The position numbers and the translations under genes were made by a program. The notes beneath the pieces were generated by a model, which was not told the DNA's origin, searched no databases, and was given only the letters and a program-made list of their open reading frames with translations. From assembly GCF_054482525.1 (NCBI RefSeq), contig NZ_CM137006.1: 64,000 bases of DNA. One strand, written 5' to 3'. Positions 7,772-44,955 of this stretch are shown in pieces. Position 1 is the first letter of the stretch. The number at the start of each line of letters is the position of its first letter.

Positions 7772-8487
7772 TTAAAGTCTTAATTGTCGATGATGAACCG
7801 TTAGCACGGGAGAACCTGCGCGTATTTTTGCAGGAGCAGAGCGATATTGAAATTGTTGGAGAGTGTTCAAACGCCGTGGAAGGGATCGGCGCGGTGCATA
7901 AACTGCGCCCGGATGTGCTGTTTCTCGATATCCAGATGCCGCGCATCAGTGGTCTGGAAATGGTGGGGATGCTCGACCCGGAACATCGTCCGTATATTGT
8001 TTTTCTCACCGCGTTTGACGAATACGCTATTAAAGCCTTTGAAGAACATGCCTTTGATTATCTGCTGAAGCCAATTGATGAAGCGCGACTGGAGAAAACG
8101 CTGGCGCGATTGCGTCAGGAGCGCAGCAAGCAGGATGTTTCGCTGTTACCGGAAAATCAACAGGCGCTGAAATTTATCCCTTGTACGGGGCATAGTCGGA
8201 TTTATTTGCTGCAAATGAAAGATGTGGCATTTGTCAGCAGTCGGATGAGCGGTGTCTACGTTACGAGTCACGAAGGGAAAGAGGGCTTTACCGAACTGAC
8301 ATTACGTACCCTGGAGAGTCGTACACCACTACTACGCTGCCATCGTCAGTATCTGGTTAACCTCGCGCATTTACAGGAGATTCGTCTGGAAGATAACGGC
8401 CAGGCCGAGTTGATTTTGCGTAATGGCTTAACCGTGCCGGTCAGCCGTCGTTATCTGAAAAGCTTAAAAGAGGCGATTGGCCTGTAA
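7768..8487 (+). CDS. btsR: LytTR-family response regulator
   Basis: [17 protein letters not shown] receiver domain plus a C-terminal LytTR domain. 239 aa, as in K-12 YehT. ATGA overlap with btsS. Confidence 0.93.
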
Positions 8488-35781: not shown

Positions 35782-36054
35782 ATGTCTCATACCATCCGTG
35801 ATAAACAGAAACTGAAAGCGCGTGCCAGTAAGATTCAGGGCCAGGTCGTGGCGCTCAAGAAAATGCTCGACGAGCCGCACGAATGCGCTGCAGTTTTACA
35901 ACAGATTGCTGCTATCCGTGGCGCGGTAAACGGTCTGATGCGGGAAGTGATTAAAGGTCATCTGACGGAACACATCGTTCACCAGGGGGATGAGCTAAAA
36001 CGTGAAGAAGATCTGGATGTCGTTCTGAAGGTGCTGGATTCTTATATCAAATAA
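35782..36054 (+). CDS. rcnR: CsoR/RcnR-family Ni/Co-responsive repressor
   Basis: 90 aa ([22 protein letters not shown]..), matching K-12 RcnR. Confidence 0.94.
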
Positions 36055-36091
36055 TTTATTAACGCTATTGTAAAACTGCCGTTTTTCCTCG

Positions 36092-36120
36092 TTTACAACG
36101 GGTGCGCTGGACATTACCAT
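36092..36120 (+). promoter_or_regulatory. putative native thiM promoter, now separated from thiMD and pointing into the island integrase
   Basis: TTTACA-17 bp-TACCAT lies immediately upstream of the left copy of the riboswitch sequence. This is a prediction by eye. Confidence 0.45.
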
Positions 36121-36142
36121 CCTCCTCTGCGATTTATCATCG

Positions 36143-36224
36143 CAACCAAACGACTCGGGGTGCCCTTCTGCGTGAAGGCTGAGAAATACCCGTATCACCT
36201 GATCTGGATAATGCCAGCGTAGGG
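36143..36224 (+). repeat. attL: 82-bp direct repeat, a 5' portion of the TPP (thi-box) aptamer that lacks the 3' strand of the closing helix and the expression platform
   Basis: Identical base for base to 44033-44114. It contains CTGAGA and the other thi-box core sequences. It diverges from the thiM leader after ..GCGTAGGG. Confidence 0.9.
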
Positions 36225-36307
36225 GGCCAAAATAGTCTTGAAAATTATGTGGTTGTATCTCTTTTTGACCATAAATCATGCTGTTAAGGTACAAAAAGGG
36301 GTCGTTT

Positions 36308-37615
36308 ATGAGGTCAAGAACTCTCCCATACACATTTCAGCGAAACGGTAATTACTATCTACAAATCCGGCTTTCGGATGGTCGGATATACAAAAAATCA
36401 CTTTTTACTGACAGTTATCGCGAAGCATCGGCGTTGATGATTGGCCTTACTCCGCACATTCCTTTCGTTAAATCACTCGCTACTCCGTTGCCGCAATTTA
36501 ATAAGTTTGTTTCAAACTTGATCGCTTCGTCACGTAACGTAATGATTCCGTTGCCACTCCCTCAGCAATTGAACAATATTTCTAAAGAAGTTTTGCAGCT
36601 TCAACCACCAGCCAAACCGGAAAAGGTACTAACACTTGCTGATGCGTGGGCTATGTACAAGGAGGAAAGAGGTCGAAATTGGACAAAATCGATCTCAATA
36701 GCAAATGAGCGTTATATGGAGGTATTGCTTGTTGTCTTGGGAAAAGAAACAGACGTAACGGCAATCACCAAACAAGATATTAAGCGAGTAATGGAAACTG
36801 TCGAAAACTTACCAAAGCGTGTAGTGCAACCGTATAGGTCAATGACTATTCAGCAACTAATCGAATGTGATGATGTGCTGCCAGAGGATTTAGTTGGTGC
36901 TGAGGCTGTACATAAGCACCTTAAAATCTACAAATCGTTATTCAAAACATTTCTGACTGAAAACAAAGATATTCTATCTAAGTCTCCGACTGATGGAATA
37001 GTAGCGGCACCATCCAAAGCTAGGTTTGGTGCATACAGTGCAGCAGAAATGAAAAAATTTGTAGGATGGGCACTAAAGCAGCCTGATGGATGGCAGAAGT
37101 GGATCACTTTGTTGTTGGCGTACACAGGAGCCAGAAGAGGTGAGATTGCTAAACTGGAGAAGTCGCAGATCAAATTTGATGAAGATAGCCAGCGGCACTA
37201 TCTTCTGATCGCGGAAAGAAGGCTGGGTAAAACTGAGAATGCTACAAGACAGGTAGTGATTCATCCCAAACTGATTGAGTGGGGGTTTCTGGATTTTGTT
37301 AACCGCCAATGGAAAGAGAAAATCTTTTCGGAAGTCTCAGGTCGAAATATGTCAAAGATAGGTAAAGTTCTTTCAGATGTTCGTGATCAGCTTGATATTC
37401 CTTATCTTGATGATTATGGGCAGCGGCGCTTGGTGCATAGTTTCCGGCATACTATGATTTCTACTTGTTTAGCTGGTTGGGTGAGTAATTTGGCGCATCT
37501 GCAACAGGTGGTAGGTCATGAAAAGAGTGGAGTAGGGATTACCCAGCGTTATCTGCACACATTCCCACTTTCCACCGTTTGTTATGTGATCGATGGTCTT
37601 TGTTGGGAGACTTAG
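36308..37615 (+). CDS. tyrosine recombinase / integrase
   Basis: The ORF in the track starts at 36278. I prefer the ATG at 36308, after an AAAGGGG Shine-Dalgarno. N-terminal arm-binding-like RNGNYYLQIRL, then catalytic-domain motifs ARRGEI, HSFRHT and GHEKSGVGITQRYLH (Tyr). Confidence 0.88.
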   Translation: MRSRTLPYTFQRNGNYYLQIRLSDGRIYKKSLFTDSYREASALMIGLTPHIPFVKSLATPLPQFNKFVSNLIASSRNVMIPLPLPQQLNNISKEVLQLQPPAKPEKVLTLADAWAMYKEERGRNWTKSISIANERYMEVLLVVLGKETDVTAITKQDIKRVMETVENLPKRVVQPYRSMTIQQLIECDDVLPEDLVGAEAVHKHLKIYKSLFKTFLTENKDILSKSPTDGIVAAPSKARFGAYSAAEMKKFVGWALKQPDGWQKWITLLLAYTGARRGEIAKLEKSQIKFDEDSQRHYLLIAERRLGKTENATRQVVIHPKLIEWGFLDFVNRQWKEKIFSEVSGRNMSKIGKVLSDVRDQLDIPYLDDYGQRRLVHSFRHTMISTCLAGWVSNLAHLQQVVGHEKSGVGITQRYLHTFPLSTVCYVIDGLCWET

Positions 37616-37743
37616 TTATTCGTGTATCCTTCTTAGTGTATAACCAGCTAATAATTTGTAGATTTTTATTGTCTGAGATCAAAAATTTTCACAACTAATT
37701 TACAATAATAACTTAAGATGAATTTAGGCTTAGTGAGTCTTCT

Positions 37744-38469
37744 ATGGTTAAAAATTTAGGCAAAAAATACAAGTATGGCGATCAACCGATAAGAGCTATT
37801 ACCATACAGATAATTGCTAATCAGTTTGGTGGGGCTGCAACGGCTAAGCAGGTAGATGATTATCTTAGAAAGCTATTTCCATCTTATAAAGATAATACTT
37901 GGCTCAATTTAATTGCTAATACAGTTAATTGTAAGCGGAGCTACTGGAGTTTCAACAAAACTGCCCGACGAACTGATGATGTAACTCATCGGCATCATAA
38001 GTATGACCGATTGTTCAAGCGTGGAAATATTTTTGAAATCTATCAACCATCTGTGCACGGTATTTGGGAATTATACCAGGATTTAGAAGGGATGTGGCGT
38101 TATCGTCAAGTAAAATCGGTTTTCGAAGAAGCTGTTGAGACGGCTGCAAAATTATCTTCAGTGGAACGAAAGCAAATTTTAGCGACAGAAAGTAAAATCC
38201 CGGAACTAATCGAAGTAACAACACGAGTTTATAAACGAAGCCCATATGTAGTTGCTGAAGTTCTTTTGAGAGCAAATGGAAAATGTCAATATTGTAAGCG
38301 AGATGCTCCTTTTCTAAAGGAAGATGGTACTCCATTTCTAGAAGTTCATCATATTGAGTGGCTTTCAAAGGGGGGGGAGGACTCTGTGGAAAATGCTATT
38401 GCATTATGTCCTAATTGCCATAGACAAGCCCATTATGGCGATCTGACATTACTACCTGTTAATAAATAG
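37744..38469 (+). CDS. HNH nuclease-domain protein with an uncharacterised 170-aa N-terminal domain (McrA-like architecture)
   Basis: C-terminal CQYCKRDAPF..EVHHIEWLSKGGEDSVENAIALCPNCHRQAH is a canonical HNH/zinc-ribbon motif. No adjacent methyltransferase gene. Confidence 0.8.
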   Translation: MVKNLGKKYKYGDQPIRAITIQIIANQFGGAATAKQVDDYLRKLFPSYKDNTWLNLIANTVNCKRSYWSFNKTARRTDDVTHRHHKYDRLFKRGNIFEIYQPSVHGIWELYQDLEGMWRYRQVKSVFEEAVETAAKLSSVERKQILATESKIPELIEVTTRVYKRSPYVVAEVLLRANGKCQYCKRDAPFLKEDGTPFLEVHHIEWLSKGGEDSVENAIALCPNCHRQAHYGDLTLLPVNK

Positions 38470-38546
38470 GCTTGATGAAAGTTCTATTTCTATATTTTTC
38501 AATATACAAATTTCCCCAAAAACGGCGTGAATATCACGCCGATCAA

Positions 38547-38894
38547 TCATACTTCAGAACACATACTCAATGTGTAAACAGCCATCTCCCCATCGGGATT
38601 AGAAGGGCGTAATACAAATATCGGTATACTGCCATTGTCAATGTATGTGGCTGCAACCCCTCCGTCAGGTGTAGCATACATCTTTGCGATGCTTTTTTGA
38701 CCTACAAAATCAAGTCTCCAAGTTTTACCGCCAAGATTTATGGTCATTTTTTTATCTTGTATATCAAAAGTTGAATCTACAGAAACTTTCTGACTTCCCG
38801 AGTCAATATGACCTTCCTGTATTGCTTTACAGGAAAAGGTTGTGGCGTGGCCCATCACTGGAATTAACAAAGCGGCAAATACTAGTTTTTTCAT
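38547..38894 (-). CDS. small secreted protein of unknown function
   Basis: I prefer the start at MKKLVFAALLIPVMGHA (signal peptide), after an AAGGGAGA Shine-Dalgarno. 115 aa with two Cys. The ORF-track start at 38951 is rejected. Confidence 0.7.
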   Translation of the reverse strand: MKKLVFAALLIPVMGHATTFSCKAIQEGHIDSGSQKVSVDSTFDIQDKKMTINLGGKTWRLDFVGQKSIAKMYATPDGGVAATYIDNGSIPIFVLRPSNPDGEMAVYTLSMCSEV

Positions 38895-39004
38895 TTGTCT
38901 CCCTTGGTGTGTCAAATGGATGGTGATGCTAATAATACATGATTGATTCAAAATGTCACGATTAGTGCGTGGTTAATTGGTGCGTCAAATTGCATCTTTG
39001 TGCC

Positions 39005-39469
39005 ATGCGAAAGAATCTGAGATACCTTTTTGGACAACGAGTAAAAGAGTTCCGTATAGCTATTGGCTTAAGCCAAGAGGCCTTTGCAGATCGGTGTGGT
39101 TTTGCACGTAGTTATATGAGTCGAATTGAGCGTGGTTGCTCTAATGCATCTCTTGATGCAATTGAGGTTCTGGCTGACGCTTTGCGTATTGAGCCTTGGC
39201 AGTTACTGGCTTCTGATTCAAGGAAACCTGATGATCAGGAGGTACTTGTTCCTTATGCTGCAGATGGGTCGTGTTTTCATCCAGGATTGGCAAGTACTCG
39301 CGATGGTTCGTTTAGAGTAGGGGAAAAATCAGCCCAGAAACGTTTCAGTTCGTTCAATGAAGCTCTCGAATACCTTCGTGGAATGGAAACCGCGAAGTGG
39401 CGTAGGCCTAATGCTAGTGGTAATTGGGGAATTGTATCTGCGGTTAAATGGGATCGACTGAATCAATAA
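39005..39469 (+). CDS. XRE-family HTH protein fused to an uncharacterised C-terminal domain
   Basis: HTH region LSQEAFADRCGFARSYMSRIERGCSNASLDAIEVLADAL. The 90-aa C-terminal part (..ETAKWRRPNASGNWGIVSAVKWD..) is not recognisable to me. Start chosen at MRKNLRYLFG. Confidence 0.75.
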   Translation: MRKNLRYLFGQRVKEFRIAIGLSQEAFADRCGFARSYMSRIERGCSNASLDAIEVLADALRIEPWQLLASDSRKPDDQEVLVPYAADGSCFHPGLASTRDGSFRVGEKSAQKRFSSFNEALEYLRGMETAKWRRPNASGNWGIVSAVKWDRLNQ

Positions 39470-39635
39470 GATATCAGTAATTTTCGGGCCACTCCACAAG
39501 GCAATAAGTGGCTTAGTGGTGATTATCGAAGGGGAATACAAGCGAGCACCTAGGCACCATTGCAAGAACCGCTCAACGCTGAGATCAGCAAGCCCCGATT
39601 TTTGCCGACCGTCCCTGTCAAATATCAAGGAGGCA

Positions 39636-40187
39636 TTACGCCACCTGCTCTTTCTTGATACGTTGCACCGTCTGCGTGCTGACACTGAAATCTTTTGCTA
39701 CGCTCCGAATTGAGCCACCATTCGCGAGAGCGGCAGCAATTCCCGCTCGATCAATTGCTTTTCCATTACCACGTTTTGCTATACGTCCAGCGGCCTTGGC
39801 TGCGGCGATCCCTTCACGTTGACGCTCAAGCATCATTTCACGTTCCATTTGTGCCACTGCTGCAAGAACTGTGAGCATCATATTCCCTGCGGGAGAGTTC
39901 TTTCCTGTCTTAAAGTCTTCTTTATGGAAATGCACAGACACGCCGCGCTTTGTTAATTGCTCTACAGTTGCCAGAAGGTCGGCTGTATTACGACAAAGGC
40001 GATCAATACTATGGACGTGTAACACGTCACCCTCCCGCACATAGTTCATCATTGCCTCAAACTGTGGGCGCTGAGTGTTCTTGCCTGACGCTTTATCTTC
40101 AAAGACTTTATCAAGAGTTACTCCTGCTAATTGACGGTCTGTGTTTTGTTGCACAGTCGATACCCTAATGTATCCAATATTAGCCAT
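39636..40187 (-). CDS. serine recombinase (resolvase/invertase family)
   Basis: MANIGYIRVSTVQQNTDRQ contains the catalytic Ser. Also VHSIDRLCRN and a C-terminal HTH (SIRSVAKDFSVSTQTVQRI). 183 aa. Confidence 0.9.
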   Translation of the reverse strand: MANIGYIRVSTVQQNTDRQLAGVTLDKVFEDKASGKNTQRPQFEAMMNYVREGDVLHVHSIDRLCRNTADLLATVEQLTKRGVSVHFHKEDFKTGKNSPAGNMMLTVLAAVAQMEREMMLERQREGIAAAKAAGRIAKRGNGKAIDRAGIAAALANGGSIRSVAKDFSVSTQTVQRIKKEQVA

Positions 40188-40214
40188 CTTCTTTTTTCTT
40201 CTGTATTGATTTGT

Positions 40215-40318
40215 GTGTAGTGATTATTGAACGTGTTGATTAGGTGTGTAAAGTACTTTTTTCACTACGAAATTCGAAGTTTTTTAGTGTGGTGATTTAG
40301 CCTGCCTTATCACTACAC
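40215..40318. promoter_or_regulatory. res-like site upstream of the serine recombinase gene
   Basis: Perfect 10-bp inverted repeat GTGTAGTGAT (40215-40224) / ATCACTACAC (40309-40318), with inner related half-sites TCACTAC (40262-40268) and TAGTGTGGTGA (40285-40295). Confidence 0.5.
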
Positions 40319-40572
40319 TTCTTGCATGAGAATCATGTAGTTACATTTTGGTAAAATTAGCAAGCTATTAAATTGTGTGTTTATTTTGAAAAAATAATTT
40401 TTGTTGCATTAAAGAAAACTTGTTCGACAAATAATAGGTTGATTTTTGATCAATAATTTCTGATAGTGCTCTGTAAGCCGCATTACACAAGGCGCAGCGA
40501 AAGTGATGTAAAAGTGAAGAAAGCTAACATTGCACTTTTAAACTACTTTTCATTGAATTTTTTAGTATGGAA

Positions 40573-40643
40573 TTACACAGGAATAAGTTAGGGATATTCT
40601 ATGATTTACACAGGGAATATAGGGGGATTATGGTATTACACAG
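40573..40643 (+). repeat. three direct repeats of about 20 bp with core TTACACAG, spaced 33 and 30 bp
   Basis: TATGGAATTACACAGGAATA, TATGATTTACACAGGGAATA and TATGGTATTACACAGAGTGA. Cores are at 40573, 40606 and 40636. Confidence 0.7.
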
Positions 40644-40673
40644 AGTGAGTGCTATGTGATGATTGGTAGTAAC

Positions 40674-40782
40674 GGTAGGTCACTGTGAACTAGGGGGGTA
40701 GGTCACTGTGAACTAGGGGGGTAGGTCACTGTGAGCTAGGGGGTAGGTCACTGTGAACTAGGGGGTAGGTCACTGTGAACTA
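40674..40782 (+). repeat. five contiguous iterons (GGTAGGTCACTGTGAACTAGGGG, period 23/23/22/22 bp): putative vegetative origin
   Basis: Read directly from the sequence. Copy 3 carries one A-to-G change. The array is immediately followed by an AT-rich tract. Confidence 0.85.
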
Positions 40783-40877
40783 CAATAAGACTATAATAAG
40801 ACTATTAATAAAACTATATTAGATTATTAATTAGATCATAATAATAATATTCTTTATATCTATATATATATGATCTT
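40783..40877. other. AT-rich tract next to the iterons (candidate DNA-unwinding element)
   Basis: Almost pure A/T, with internal AATAAGACTAT x2 and a TATATATATAT run. Confidence 0.5.
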
Positions 40878-41883
40878 TTGCCTTCCGGCGTTAGCTTCAC
40901 TCTCTGGCAAGCAGCCTTACTCCGCTACCTTTCGGGCTACGTTGGCTGGCCCGTTCCGCTCACACCGAAAGCAAAGCGTTACTTTCTTCGTGTAACTTCG
41001 TTGGCGGTAACGCCCACGAAGGAATACTATTGCGCTGTGCGCAGTAAGAGTAATCACCTAACCAATCATCTGATTGCTTACGTGTTAACTCTCTCTAACT
41101 CTTAATTACCCTCCTACATTTAATAACTCTCGTTATTCTCTGTAGTTGTGTAATTACTCGAAGAGAGAGCGGCTAAAGCTCAATTACACTCTGCTTTCCT
41201 CGTGTAATTTCACTAAGCCTCAATACAATTTCACTTCCTACATTCTGTAGTCGTGTAATTGTTTTCGGTGGAAAAGCCAGAGGCGACACCGAAAGAGAAT
41301 TCTGATCTTATTAATCTTATCTATCTTAGTTATCTTACTTACTTTATCTACTTTATTATTAATAATAGCTTTATAAGCTCTCTGTGTAGCTCTCTGACGC
41401 AAGAAACAGAGTTCAGGAAGGGAATCACCTTAGAAAAGTGTTCTTTGCGTCATAATGTGTTTTATGAAGGATTCAGAGGTGTTTCATAACAGAGATGTAT
41501 AGAGGATACTTTAGGTAATTAAAAATAAGGGGTCTAAATGCTTCTCTAACAGCATTAAGCAGGGTAGAGAATGGAAACCGCTTTGCCTACATATATAAAC
41601 TCACTACAGGGCTTTACAGAGCGTTTTATAAAGTGACTCTCTGTTTTATATCTACCATCACCTTTTCATATACCTAACAAATACAAAATAAGCCCCTTAA
41701 ATAAGCCTCTGGCGAGCTAAACAGCCATTACATAAGAGAATGTATTGCTTTTATCAAAACCTCGTTAGAACGCGTTTTAGAGCGTTTTAGCGGATAATGA
41801 AGAATAGCACTACACAGGAGAGCACGAATTGCTAAGAAAAAATGTAACTACATGAAAAAGATCAGATTTTTTGTGAAAAGGTA

Positions 41884-41912
41884 TTGACAAACGTCTCTTT
41901 CTGTGCAATAAT
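41884..41912 (+). promoter_or_regulatory. predicted sigma70 promoter upstream of the rep-like operon
   Basis: TTGACA (41884-41889), 17 bp, then AATAAT (41907-41912). Confidence 0.5.
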
Positions 41913-41965
41913 AGGTATTAGAGGGACAGGAATAGATTCTTATCCTCTAAATAATTAAACCAATG

Positions 41966-42010
41966 CACCGCACTTTGAAGCCCAAGGCTTGTAAGGTGTG
42001 TTTTTTCTTT
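41966..42010 (+). terminator. intrinsic-terminator-like hairpin between the promoter and the first ORF (attenuator, or the 3' end of a roughly 90-nt sRNA)
   Basis: Long imperfect stem 41966-41982/41986-42000 around a CAA loop, followed by TTTTTTCTTTT. It lies 29 bp upstream of the ATG at 42039. Confidence 0.55.
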
Positions 42011-42038
42011 TAACCAAATAGAATAAGGAGGCTAATTA

Positions 42039-42227
42039 ATGAAATATTTTACTCCACAGGATGTAGTAGAAGCCTGGAAACGTGGTGAGATCAACCGCTT
42101 TAAAGTAAGGATGTATAGAAACACCGCTCGCCGTTGTGGTTATCCAGAGCGTGAAAAATGTTTTGACGATGCACTAAAAATTATTGATGAACTGCGTAAA
42201 GCTGAGAAAGAAGCAGAGAAAAAATAA
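42039..42227 (+). CDS. 62-aa basic/acidic small protein, unknown function
   Basis: Strong AAGGAGG Shine-Dalgarno 8 nt upstream. It is the first ORF of a tightly packed 4-gene cluster. Confidence 0.65.
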   Translation: MKYFTPQDVVEAWKRGEINRFKVRMYRNTARRCGYPEREKCFDDALKIIDELRKAEKEAEKK

Positions 42228-42249
42228 TAGACAAGAGAAGGAGAAAACT

Positions 42250-42417
42250 ATGAGCGAAACTAAGAAACCAATTCCGCGCACTTACCTACACGTTGACCCT
42301 GAAATCTTCAAGGTTTTATTTGCTGAAGCCAAGAAAAGGCAAATTATGGTCAGTGATTTGATGTTAGAAATCATTACTGAAGCAGCAGAGAACATCAAAC
42401 AAAAAAAGGGTAAGTGA
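42250..42417 (+). CDS. 55-aa ribbon-helix-helix (CopG/Arc-like) protein candidate
   Basis: Start at MSETKKPIPRTYLHV after AAGGAGAA. The beta-strand, helix, helix pattern (RTYLHVDPEIFKVLFAEAKKRQIMVSDLMLEII) fits an RHH fold. The ORF-track start at 42184 is rejected. Confidence 0.6.
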   Translation: MSETKKPIPRTYLHVDPEIFKVLFAEAKKRQIMVSDLMLEIITEAAENIKQKKGK

Positions 42418-42468
42418 TCCTCATTCACTTTAGTAGCGCATTAAGCGTGATTTATAAGGAGATTTTTA

Positions 42469-43158
42469 ATGATTAATCAACTAACTTTTACAAAACACTA
42501 TGACACGTTTGATAATGTATCAAAGATTTATTCTGATAAATTCCCTCAAGGAAAAGATTTAGATCTATTACATATTGTGCTTTATTTTCGATTCCTTAGT
42601 TATCAGGAAAACAACCTTAATTGTTATGAAAGTCACGAAACATTAGCTAAGATTTTTAAGTCTTCAGCGTCAACAATTAAACGTAAGATAAACGATCTTA
42701 AAGAGATGGGATTATTAGAAACATCCCCACATCCTGATCCGTATATTTCATCTTTGATTTACAATGCTCTCCCTCTCACAGATGCACATATTACTCCCCC
42801 AGGAGAATCATCACTCTCTGATCTTTCTGAGGCAGAAGAAGCACAGGAACAACCTAAAGGCCATAAACAGCCTTCTTTTGATGTTCTTGATGATTGGGAT
42901 ACGCCTTTACCCTGGGAGACGGAAGAAACACCTGTTTCATCAAGTGAAAAAGTAGCTAATGATAATGAGGAGGATGTGTTAGAGAATTTTGCCTCTCTTA
43001 TCATCCAGGAGAAACACACAAGAACAGGAGGAGCATCATTTATTGAGTTTGCAAATTCACTAGCTTGTAGATACGGGCTAAAACGACCAAATGGTATTGA
43101 GGCATATTTTTCTAAGAATTACCCAAATATATACGATGACTTTGATATTCCATTTTAA
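42469..43158 (+). CDS. putative replication initiator (winged-helix N-terminal domain, acidic C-terminal half)
   Basis: HETLAKIFKSSASTIKRKINDLKEMGLLE is an HTH/wHTH like those in DnaD/Rep-type initiators. AAGGAG Shine-Dalgarno. It is encoded near the iteron array. The function is inferred. Confidence 0.55.
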   Translation: MINQLTFTKHYDTFDNVSKIYSDKFPQGKDLDLLHIVLYFRFLSYQENNLNCYESHETLAKIFKSSASTIKRKINDLKEMGLLETSPHPDPYISSLIYNALPLTDAHITPPGESSLSDLSEAEEAQEQPKGHKQPSFDVLDDWDTPLPWETEETPVSSSEKVANDNEEDVLENFASLIIQEKHTRTGGASFIEFANSLACRYGLKRPNGIEAYFSKNYPNIYDDFDIPF

Positions 43159-43169
43159 TAAGGAGGGTT

Positions 43170-43415
43170 ATGATTCAATATTTAGTAAAAAATCAAGTAG
43201 ACAGAATTCAGTGTAATGACACAGGAAAACGCATCTACGAGACACTTGTTTACCTCTATAAAGGAAAGCCAACACCGCTAAAATATAGCGATGTGTTACA
43301 TCGAGCAGGTTGCTCTGAGTCAGGTTTAAAATTCTGGCTGAAACAGCTATCAAATTTCGGTGTTATTGAAATGAAAGAGCTGTCTTTTTCTACATTCAAC
43401 CTCAAGAAGTTATAG
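43170..43415 (+). CDS. 81-aa winged-helix-like small DNA-binding protein candidate
   Basis: AAGGAGGG Shine-Dalgarno. The YSDVLHRAGCSESGLKFWLKQLSNFGVIE segment looks like a wHTH. Confidence 0.55.
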   Translation: MIQYLVKNQVDRIQCNDTGKRIYETLVYLYKGKPTPLKYSDVLHRAGCSESGLKFWLKQLSNFGVIEMKELSFSTFNLKKL

Positions 43416-43483
43416 AAAATAGAATTCATCTATTCCACGCTCTAATTCTATTTCTCTGTTTAATATAAAAGGAAAACATTATT

Positions 43484-43561
43484 ATGGTAATAGCTATGTG
43501 GTGGTTGTTGTTTTTTATGCTCGTAGAAACATATGCAAGTAAGTCTGGAAAACAAAAATAA
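43484..43561 (+). CDS. candidate 25-aa hydrophobic peptide (MVIAMWWLLFFMLVETYASKSGKQK)
   Basis: Hand-translated. AAGGA lies 10 nt upstream. It has a hydrophobic N-terminal part and a basic tail, like type I toxins or small membrane peptides. There is no other support. Confidence 0.25.
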   Translation: MVIAMWWLLFFMLVETYASKSGKQK

Positions 43562-43580
43562 TATATTGATGATTTGTTTT

Positions 43581-43820
43581 TTATAACTTCGTGGTGTCAA
43601 GTCCAGCAGCTTTGAGTCGCTCGGTAAGATTTCTCATTTTGCTGAACTCTGTACCAAAGCTGGCTTTAAGTCCTACACCTTCACAAAACTCTTTTGCCGT
43701 AACCTTTTTCAGATGGTCAGCATATTTGATCATCTGGAGGTGCATTTCCATCGTTTGGCTATTTCGTGGTGCGCTGCTAATGGCTTGCTTAATGTTCTCG
43801 TAGATCTGGGTTTCTGTCAT
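43581..43820 (-). CDS. 79-aa protein of unknown function at the right end of the island
   Basis: Clean ORF, MTETQIYENIKQAISSAPRNSQ... It is the last gene before attR. Confidence 0.6.
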   Translation of the reverse strand: MTETQIYENIKQAISSAPRNSQTMEMHLQMIKYADHLKKVTAKEFCEGVGLKASFGTEFSKMRNLTERLKAAGLDTTKL

Positions 43821-44032
43821 TTTTTATCTCACCTATCAAATTTAGATAAATAATATAAATTAGCAAATTAAGATAATCAATAGTTTTTATCATCTGAATG
43901 ATAGATGTTAAATGTTTCTTTTTCATTTCTGATATGGGGTACAAAATGGGGTACACAGAGAAGAAGCAATTAATGGAGGCGAGCTTGCATCTGCAAGCCA
44001 CTTCCCCTAAGCTGGCACAAAATATAGAGATT

Positions 44033-44166
44033 CAACCAAACGACTCGGGGTGCCCTTCTGCGTGAAGGCTGAGAAATACCCGTATCACCTGATCTGGATA
44101 ATGCCAGCGTAGGGAAGTCACGGACCACCAGGTCATTGCTTCTTCACGTTATGGCAGGAGCAAACT
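44033..44166 (+). promoter_or_regulatory. complete TPP (thi-box) riboswitch of thiM; its first 82 nt form the attR repeat
   Basis: CGACTCGGGGTGCCCTTCTGCGTGAAGGCTGAGAAATACCCGTATCACCTGATCTGGATAATGCCAGCGTAGGGAAGTC matches the well-studied E. coli thiM aptamer. It is followed by the native expression platform and a GGAG Shine-Dalgarno. Confidence 0.92.
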
Positions 44167-44955
44167 ATGCAAGTCGACCTGCTGAGTTCCGCGCAATCTG
44201 CGCACGCGTTACACCTTTTTCACCAACATTCCCCTCTTGTGCACTGCATGACCAACGATGTGGTGCAAACCTTTACTGCCAATACCTTGCTGGCGCTCGG
44301 TGCATCGCCAGCGATGGTTATCGAAACCGAAGAGGCCAGTCAGTTTGCGGCTATCGCCAGTGCGTTGCTGATTAACGTTGGCACGCTGACGCAGCCACGC
44401 GCACAGGCGATGCGTGCCGCCGTTGAACAGGCAAAACGCTCTCAAACACCCTGGATGCTTGATCCAGTAGCGGTGGGTGCACTCGATTATCGCCGCCGTT
44501 TTTGTCTGGAACTTCTGTCTCATAAGCCAACCGCCATACGTGGTAATGCTTCGGAAATCATGGCATTAGCTGGCGTTGCTAATGGTGGACGGGGAGTGGA
44601 TACCACTGACGCCGCAGCTAACGCGATACCCGCTGCACAAACACTGGCACGGGAAACTGGCGCAATCGTCGTGGTCACTGGCGAGATGGATTATGTTACC
44701 GATGGACATCGTATCATTGGTATTCACGGTGGCGATCCGTTAATGACCAAAGTGGTAGGAACTGGCTGTGCATTATCGGCGGTTGTCGCTGCCTGTTGTG
44801 CGTTACCAGGCGATATGCTGGAAAATGTCGCATCTGCCTGTCACTGGATGAAACAAGCCGGAGAACGCGCAGTCGCCAGAAGCGAGGGGCCAGGCAGTTT
44901 TGTTCCACATTTCCTTGATGCGCTCTGGCAATTGACGCAGGAGGTGCAGGCATGA
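44167..44955 (+). CDS. thiM: hydroxyethylthiazole kinase
   Basis: 262 aa ([32 protein letters not shown]..), matching K-12 ThiM. The stop overlaps the thiD start. Confidence 0.95.

Follow-up and report, generated by a model that had tools for sequence, protein, structure and literature searches.

Inside a small integrated island of Escherichia coli, a 1.85-kb stretch without annotated genes carries five tandem repeats (iterons), and a second, shorter word is repeated on both sides of them, as ATTACAC to the left and as its complement GTGTAAT to the right. What are these flanking words for, and what reads them? The question was addressed in the window, by which we mean the whole 64-kb stretch of chromosome analysed (64,000 nucleotides of contig NZ_CM137006.1, assembly GCF_054482525.1; E. 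coli, 100% identical to strain SCU-102), and in related loci, which are referred to by L numbers. Tandem repeats, an AT-rich stretch and a co-varying cognate initiator are all found, which makes the region a candidate iteron-type origin. From the comparison of sequences, the words may be accessory origin sites for a lineage-specific part of the initiator complex, and the hairpin zone that adjoins them possibly serves priming or primosome loading. We favour this explanation, although with somewhat less than even confidence.

Word repeats and hairpins around the iterons

Seven of the nine copies of ATTACAC/GTGTAAT in the window fall within 40482-41259, as do all three copies of TTACACAG. Enrichment over an AT-rich background, on which the preliminary description of this DNA had staked the repeat family, is evident. 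The local AT-rich sequence was simulated 1000 times with a first-order Markov model. On average the simulations contained ATTACAC 0.33 times (7 observed), TTACAC 1.2 times (10 observed) and GTGTAATT 0.12 times (5 observed), and none of them reached the observed counts. Because ATTACAC had been chosen post hoc, 7-mers were also counted without bias across 21 related loci, in the non-coding region homologous to this one. ATTACAC, or ATTGCAC in a sister lineage, is at or near the top in 20 of them. Within the ATTACAC lineage the word ranks first (6-11 copies per non-coding region), and in the sister lineage ATTGCAC/TGTGCAA is at or near the top with 4-7 copies; the exception is the divergent L019, in which TGTGCAA has five copies and AT-rich words rank above it.

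The arrangement of the copies is also conserved. In both lineages, plus-strand copies lie to the left of the iterons and minus-strand copies to the right, with one plus-strand copy inside the right-hand block, so that the convergent layout proposed in the preliminary description extends to both kinds of element. All of the individual copies described there exist, with minor corrections. The left cores at 40573, 40606 and 40636 all read TTACACAG, and the same-strand TTACAC at 41184-41189 is present. The related copy reported near 40487 exists, with its core starting at 40483; GTGTAA occurs at 40990, 41148, 41202 and 41253, but the copy at 40990 reads GTGTAAC and not GTGTAAT. A further minus-strand copy at 40246, in the -35 element of the recombinase promoter, had been overlooked.

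The left-hand copies, three or four in number, are simple direct repeats spaced by 30-33 bp in DNA without structure, and each is directed towards the iterons. Left repeat 1 is kept as GGAATTACACAGG in 16 of 20 distinct relatives. Left repeat 2, in which TTTACA-18-TATGGT scores as a weak rightward promoter, is found in the ATTACAC lineage and in L019 and is replaced in the remaining ATTGCAC-lineage loci. At the position of left repeat 3 the sister lineage has CATTGCACAGATG, an A/G difference that tracks the type of the right-hand module. On the right, the longer duplicated module noted earlier is real, with TCTGTAGTTGTGTAATT at 41139-41155 and TCTGTAGTCGTGTAATT at 41244-41260 being 94% identical, and a second duplicated pair, CTTTCTTCGTGTAACTTC (40982-40999) and CTTTCCTCGTGTAATTTC (41194-41211), is 89% identical. 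Left and right units are alike beyond the core: the reverse complement of the left unit is TTATTC-CTGT-GTGTAATT, and the right unit is TTATTCTCTGTAGTTGTGTAATT.

Across loci, the parts of the region follow one another in a mosaic order: the left module with its plus-strand copies, the iteron set, an AT-rich stretch, a 420-bp GC-richer module (called D here and D' in the sister lineage), a second AT-rich stretch and a shared right part. At least three iteron types occur among the loci. GC content falls to 0.30 in 40740-40899, and the AT-rich stretch at 40779-40870 is presumed, from its position beside the iterons, to be the unwinding element; either AT-rich tract (40779-40844 or 41305-41353) could have this role. 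In a larger relative of O157 type (L003 4969-7928, the same as L014 12802-15761), the non-coding region extends over 3 kb. Two different families of iterons stand in tandem there, nine copies of TTACAC on the plus strand are scattered across some 900 bp, and (A)TGTAACG(R) forms a third family of repeats.

The copies had been described as sites for a DNA-binding protein. Those on the right are no simple duplex sites but arms of hairpins in an extremely palindromic block of 320 bp. Over its 430 nt, module D folds with z scores of -7.4 (plus strand) and -8.7 (minus strand) relative to shuffled sequence, and D' with -5.7 and -4.0. In sliding windows of 160 nt the signal is confined to 40980-41300, where z falls to -8.0/-9.8, and it is about 0 in the region of the left copies. 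With DNA parameters, the core folds into seven back-to-back hairpins (40996-41294). G.U accounts for only 2-3 of the roughly 105 pairs in the core, and one strand folds about as well as the other. The right-hand copies form arms of three or four of the seven hairpins and point back towards the iterons. The plus-strand copy at 41182-41189 and the minus-strand copy at 41202-41209, listed separately in the preliminary description, pair with each other as the arms of a single 8-bp hairpin; the remaining right-hand copies are likewise hairpin arms. A row of hairpins is the better description of the right-hand half.

Module D is 93-100% identical among D-lineage loci, and the differences are informative. 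The exact pattern AATTACAC-N12-GTGTAATT of hairpin 5 occurs in 10 of 11 D-lineage locus records (9 independent loci); in the eleventh, L017, it was lost by deletion. There, hairpins 5 and 6 are missing together through a clean 105-bp deletion between duplicated CTGTAGTYGTGTAATT modules. The GTGTAAT copy at 41148-41154 belongs to the stem TAATTAC/GTAATTA of hairpin 4. In L013 the inner AATAAC part of this hairpin is absent and the outer stems are retained, and both L003 and L013 have an altered partner arm (TAATTCC) and an unaltered GTGTAATTA arm. In D', TTGCACAA pairs with a distant TTGTGCAA, and one hairpin carries three compensatory double changes between L004 and L019. The absence of the inner stem in L013, the clean deletion in L017 and the compensatory changes indicate that the hairpin structure is under constraint. 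The longest string common to D and D' is TTGCGCTGTGCGC.

A perfect 17-bp inverted repeat, TCATGTAGTTACATTTT, with the dyad core ATGTA-GT-TACAT, brackets the origin region at 40333-40349 and 41839-41855. Inverted repeats beside a small serine recombinase have the structure of a Hin/Gin-type invertible segment. Of 601 E. coli records that matched, none covered the predicted inverted junction to at least 80%. L002 and L004, whose recombinase is identical or nearly so, carry an imperfect right arm, and an invertible segment was rejected on these grounds. Between the strong promoter and ORF1 (open reading frame 1), the leader at 41913-42038 has two hairpins that are conserved in relatives. The second, GCACCGCACTTTGAAGCCCAAGGCTTGTAAGGTGTG followed by TTTTTT, resembles a terminator or attenuator and was not called by a simple scan.

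Co-variation with the operon proteins

A protein that reads the words would be expected to change with them. The proteins of the rightward operon were aligned for 13 loci, all from E. coli, and typed, the 229-aa initiator being treated as an N-terminal winged helix-turn-helix (wHTH) part, Rep-N, and a C-terminal part, Rep-C. The Rep-C type tracks the module type in every case (D in 5/5 loci, D' in 8/8), as does the type of ORF4 (81-92 aa) wherever it is present (10/13 loci). ORF1, ORF2, which resembles a ribbon-helix-helix (RHH) protein, and Rep-N, which lie between D and Rep-C, are of types mixed across both lineages. Both in the right-hand module and in the left copy nearest the iterons, the word variant tracks the Rep-C and ORF4 types in all 13 typed loci and in 120 rows drawn evenly from about 720 E. 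coli records. It does not track the iterons, Rep-N, ORF1 or the RHH protein. The A/G change in that left copy (ATTACACAG or ATTGCACAG) keeps step with the D type despite the variable iterons between them. The iteron type, for its part, tracks the type of Rep-N in the loci compared. Rep-C is the only lineage-linked protein part present in every element. This pattern suggests a functional coupling of the iterons with Rep-N, and of the word and module D with Rep-C and ORF4.

The coupling was examined further with chimeric queries against E. coli records. Module D joined to type II Rep-C/ORF4 was covered to at least 80% in 0 of 722 records, and D' joined to type I in 0 of 716. In 60 + 60 evenly spread rows of these results, matches starting in D or D' all ended at the artificial junction, and matches reaching the far end all started in the shared part. 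The divergent L019 has a D'-like module together with type-II-like proteins.

The preliminary description had proposed a second DNA-binding factor encoded by the element, such as the RHH or winged-helix protein of the operon. Such a factor is reasonable, given that the word variant tracks Rep-C and the winged-helix ORF4, but the RHH types assort independently. In protein family searches ORF2 had no family match; an unannotated RHH-like ORF (MNINFDSATYNALLNRAKAEGKSIPKLVNELL...) lies at the position of ORF2, between ORF1 and the initiator, in the O104:H4 element (L004, about 7875-8000). The initiator matches the PHROGs replication initiation, O-like and DnaD-like families (E = 2e-9), with a Pfam HTH_36 match just under the cut-off. 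In a single-sequence structure model of the initiator, residues 167-225 alone are confident and form a small helical bundle; outside the C-terminal helices the model is poor. Fragments of Rep-C matched no Pfam family. For ORF4, which is found in E. coli only, an AlphaFold2 model (predicted local distance difference test score 79.6) has the topology H-b-H-H-b-b, and its nearest folds, none of them significant, are the CodY C-terminal domain, ArsR, MarR and PefI.

The initiator gene is itself a mosaic. Compared with L002-L013, 42469-43158 shows at least four N-terminal wHTH types and two or three C-terminal types, joined at a conserved TDAHITPPGESSL linker that resembles a recombination joint. 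E. coli SSB ends in DFDDDIPF, a tip that docks PriA, chi, DnaG and others. The end of the initiator here, YDDFDIPF (43135-43158), resembles this tip, and sister-lineage initiators end in YDSLPF.

Explanations for the repeats

If the words are accessory sites, origin firing could proceed as follows. Rep-N would bind the iterons, as co-variation and homology suggest, and Rep-C, together with ORF4 where it is present, would read ATTRCAC on both sides of them. Docking of Rep-C/ORF4 on the two sides may give a looped or wrapped origin complex. Once the AT-rich DNA has opened, hairpins could be extruded from the palindromes next to it, with the word still presented as a duplex stem, and the extruded hairpins would mark a zone that recruits host priming and helicase-loading proteins. 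Annotation and domain searches of the island proteins gave no helicase, loader or primase gene among the island genes, so host replication machinery must be recruited; the SSB-like tip DDFDIPF may help to bring in proteins that bind the SSB tail, such as PriA, the chi subunit and DnaG.

Several observations weigh against this explanation. The left copies are no better conserved than their flanks among 20 distinct sequences, and the 7-mer of the distal left copy (copy 1) is mutated in 5 of the 20. The left module of both lineages holds both word variants, so that the A/G position may not set specificity. L017 has lost two of the three word-bearing hairpins, so these are not all essential. Rep-C belongs to no recognisable DNA-binding family, with a single-sequence model as its only structure. 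All copies are kept in L007, L010, L012/L022 and L021, elements without ORF4, which is therefore not the sole binder. Finally, the association of D with Rep-C and ORF4 could reflect backbone linkage if exchange between elements takes the form of double-crossover patches rather than single crossovers.

The most serious competing explanation starts from the hairpins. Stable hairpins near an origin, as found here by folding with DNA parameters, are a feature of single-strand initiation or primosome assembly signals, and hairpin signals adjoin the origins of R1/R100, ColE1 and F. Module D might be a purely structural signal of this kind, read by host PriA or primase without any protein of the element, in which case the right-hand copies would be enriched through duplication of three related hairpins and the left copies would be unrelated or promoter-like. 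Seven back-to-back hairpins beside an AT-rich stretch, with extreme z scores and almost purely Watson-Crick stems, agree with this, as do the duplicated modules that the hairpins carry, the island's want of a primase or loader gene and the weak promoter score of left repeat 2; the SSB-like tail of the initiator fits too. We nevertheless consider it rather unlikely, since the same 7-mer tops the count on left and right, which is unexpected by chance, and the iteron-proximal left copy changes from A to G together with the right-hand module. The likeness of left and right units beyond the core speaks against it as well, and in hairpin 4 of L003 and L013 it is the partner arm and not the GTGTAATTA arm that changed, so that the word itself seems constrained. 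A structured non-coding RNA (primer, antisense or regulatory), with the words as paired stem segments, would account for the very low folding energy on both strands, the compensatory changes in one D' hairpin and the unusual length of the non-coding region. It looks decidedly unlikely: in Rfam at E <= 1, 36000-44200 gave two thiamine pyrophosphate (TPP) riboswitches only, plus a weak tmRNA match below the gathering score, and D is flanked by no promoter-like or terminator-like site. The share of G.U among core pairs (2-3%) and the equal folding of both strands are typical of DNA palindromes, and the better-folding strand differs between D and D'. Module D is thus read as DNA palindromes (cruciforms or single-strand hairpins) and not as RNA.

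Repeats that flank a central site, as these do, are typical of terminase recognition (lambda cosB, SPP1 pac). The words would then be packaging (cos or pac) sites read by a protein of small-terminase-like or redirecting type, encoded either by a helper phage or by relatives that carry a capsid gene, the mini-island keeping the signal in order to be packaged. The module D type tracks the whole downstream lineage block, including the major head protein gene in larger relatives, and the longest string shared by D and D' agrees with such a signal. The island also encodes an HNH endonuclease, an enzyme that partners terminase in HK97-like cos phages (bioRxiv 10.1101/2022.09.08.507074). In this region, however, the repeats are laid out as in an origin, on either side of the iterons and the AT-rich stretch, and no terminase gene is annotated or detected in the examined stretches of larger relatives. 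A cos site of known helper type was rejected, as lambda cosN, P2 cos and the HK97 cohesive ends show no likeness to any sequence here, and a packaging role seems improbable. Still less can be said for a partition or incompatibility (handcuffing) site, partition and incompatibility both having been suggested in the preliminary description. Plasmid centromeres are typically arrays of short repeats to which small RHH or wHTH proteins bind, and ORF4 is a winged helix with TubR among its many weak fold matches; but no island protein has a ParA, ParM or TubZ-type NTPase domain, the element is maintained by chromosomal integration at the thiM riboswitch, and the RHH type does not track the word variant. 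A partition role is accordingly unsupported, and the reading as a whole is very improbable. Degenerate host DnaA boxes (TTWTNCACA) have hardly any chance of being the answer. Many origins of iteron plasmids have such boxes, TTRCACA agrees with the box at positions 3-9, and the copies at 40604 and 40634 differ from the full box by no more than one base; the element also has no helicase loader of its own. Yet 40188-42038 contains no perfect box, only 2 of 9 listed copies come within one mismatch, and one-mismatch boxes are only about twice as frequent as in the window-wide background. The flanking base is also wrong, the base before TT being A in most copies where DnaA needs T, and the A/G position, which is N in the box, is uniform within the right-hand module of each lineage.

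Accessory sites read by the initiator complex, the explanation we favour, can be set beside known origins. As at the lambda origin, tandem dyad-containing iterons adjoin an AT-rich stretch and then palindromic DNA, and the island initiator resembles lambda O in its N-terminal wHTH, which matches O-like and DnaD-like PHROGs families, and in a C-terminal part that presumably recruits host replication proteins. Unlike in lambda, the origin lies outside the initiator gene, in the 1.85-kb non-coding region, no P-like helicase loader is found, the second repeat family and the 320-bp hairpin row have no counterpart at ori-lambda, and the initiator has an SSB-like tip. In plasmids, palindromic or hairpin-forming DNA acts in cis, by way of supercoiling or gyrase at the par site of pSC101, and in priming or primosome assembly at the G-site downstream of R1/R100 oriR and the ColE1 pas sites. 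The island shares with these plasmids a core origin with palindromic or hairpin DNA nearby. It differs in having no sequence similarity in PLSDB and no DnaA boxes in its origin, and in that its hairpins share a word with direct repeats across the iterons and co-vary with the C-terminal domain of the initiator.

Satellites offer two further comparisons. In P4, ori and crr are two cis regions with the same short repeat, both bound by alpha, and replication needs the second region; the distance to crr is 4.5 kb, and the alpha protein is a large primase-helicase. The island resembles P4 as a predicted phage satellite with a second cis region of short-word copies, whereas its word differs from the iterons and directly flanks them. 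With phage-inducible chromosomal islands (PICIs), including the Staphylococcus aureus pathogenicity islands (SaPIs) and capsid-forming PICIs (cf-PICIs), it has in common an integrase, a repressor-like HTH protein, an HNH endonuclease and an iteron origin with AT-rich DNA, as well as a head protein gene in larger relatives, but not a primase-helicase Rep, AlpA, TerS, TerL, portal or protease gene. The cf-PICIs are defined by their own capsid, portal, protease, adaptor/connector, HNH, TerS and TerL (PMC10085698; bioRxiv 10.1101/2022.09.08.507074; 10.1101/2025.02.11.637232), and of these the window island has the HNH endonuclease only, beside its integrase. Membership of the PICIs or cf-PICIs was rejected, neither form of relative having the defining gene set.

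The island, its relatives and its origin

The island, which on its sequence appears to be a small integrated phage-satellite-like element, is 7.8 kb long (about 36242-44035) and lies between two copies of the TPP riboswitch upstream of thiM, at 36146-36241 and 44036-44132, whose scores of 61.3 and 71.2 bits exceed the Rfam gathering threshold. The riboswitch was duplicated by the insertion, so that the left copy is now upstream of the integrase gene and the right copy upstream of thiM. The features of the island and its origin region are collected in Table 1.

Table 1 Features of the island and of its candidate origin region.
Feature	Position	Strand	Remarks
Tyrosine integrase	36278-37615		
HNH endonuclease	37744-38469		241 aa
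Hypothetical protein			listed between HNH endonuclease and HTH_3 protein
HTH_3 repressor-like protein	38969-39469		
Serine recombinase	39636-40187	-	183 aa; Resolvase domain, E = 1e-38
Stretch without annotated gene	40188-42038		1.85 kb; word repeats in its middle
Distal left copy	40482-40493	+	CATTACACAAGG; in most relatives
Left direct repeat 1	40568-40600	+	core TTACACAG at 40573-40580
Left direct repeat 2	40601-40630	+	core 40606-40613; 33 bp after repeat 1
Left direct repeat 3	40631-40660	+	core 40636-40643; 30 bp after repeat 2; adjoins iterons
Five iterons	40671-40787	+	GGTAGGTCACTGTGAACTAGGGG; period 22-23 bp, 96% matches
AT-rich stretch	40779-40870		about six 11-mers ACTATAATAAG (40779-40844); presumed unwinding element
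Module D	40871-41300		GC-richer palindrome block; core 40980-41300 holds all right-hand copies
Hairpin 1	40987-41021		CTTCGT(G)...GGCG GTAA CGCC...(C)ACGAAG; GTGTAAC copy 40990-40996 in alternative 5' arm
Hairpin 4	41089-41169		81 nt; nested stems CTCTCTCT/AGAGAGAG, TAATTAC/GTAATTA, CTACA/TGTAG, AATAAC/GTTATT
Hairpin 5	41171-41219		AATTACAC (41182-41189) pairs with GTGTAATT (41202-41209); 12-nt loop
Hairpin 6	41225-41262		ACAATTtCAC...CTACA ttc TGTAG...GTGtAATTGT; contains copy 41253-41259
Hairpin 7	41263-41294		TTTCGGTG...CACCGAAA; last in row
Second AT-rich stretch	41305-41353		about four 9-mers ATCTTATTT; right of module D
Strong sigma-70-like promoter	41884-41912	+	TTGACA-17-AATAAT (11 of 12); rightward operon; in shared right part
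Rightward operon	42039-43415	+	four small genes
ORF2	42250-42417	+	55 aa; RHH-like by eye; types do not track word variant
Initiator	42469-43158	+	229 aa; N-terminal wHTH, acidic linker, C-terminal helical domain, end DDFDIPF
ORF4	43170-43415	+	81 aa; winged-helix protein; type tracks module D type
HTH_73 protein			listed after rightward operon

Two weak matches within the island were recorded. In NCBIfam the HNH endonuclease comes closest to the HNH portion of IscB (E = 1.5e-10), with a score that falls far short of the cut-off, and at 241 aa the protein is far too short for IscB. The tmRNA-model match (43823-44077; 15.1 bits, E = 0.0068, gathering score 47) covers the right end of the island and the start of the right-hand riboswitch copy and is probably due to chance.

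Related DNA is present in 726 of 5426 complete E. coli genomes (~13%). No related DNA was found in a phage collection, the plasmid collection PLSDB contained nothing similar to the origin or module D, and a cross-species search with ORF1 returned only four loci, all Escherichia-like. The element family thus appears to be essentially confined to Escherichia. Near-identical elements of E. coli type, with ORF1 95% and 60% identical, also occur on two contigs (L016 and L018) that bear the label of metagenome-assembled genomes of Bacillota; mis-binning or contamination is the most likely reason for these labels. The relatives take two forms: mini-islands at thiM, like that of the window (L001, L002, L012, L022), and 15-kb elements at tRNA or other sites, with additional major head, tape-measure-like and Dit-like proteins. 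One of the latter (L014, 17309-24262) encodes a major head protein, a Dit-like tail protein and, at 609 aa, a tape-measure-like protein, and has its integrase at the far end. In those parts of the larger relatives that were examined, neither a terminase nor a portal or protease was detected; these elements match no described satellite family and may be of an undescribed kind. Searches of the literature turned up no account of this family or of its origin, and the replication region seems not to have been described.

An iteron origin with accessory cis elements is of a known kind, met here in an apparently undescribed but common E. coli element. If the words are ordinary accessory sites, the gain is the correct annotation of a 1.85-kb "empty" region. 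A bolder proposal, which we regard as a long shot, is that module D is a new, lineage-specific "loading pad": Rep-C/ORF4 would read ATTRCAC on the left duplex and on the extruded right-hand stems, the SSB-mimicking tip would bring in PriA and other clients of the SSB tail, and a satellite without helicase, loader or primase genes would start replication by imitating a stalled fork or SSB-coated substrate. If the favoured model holds, a minimal satellite origin would consist of a swappable iteron/wHTH module, a lineage-locked module of words, hairpins and Rep-C, and a mimic of the SSB tail, and the family would offer a testable case of modular origin evolution and primosome hijacking.

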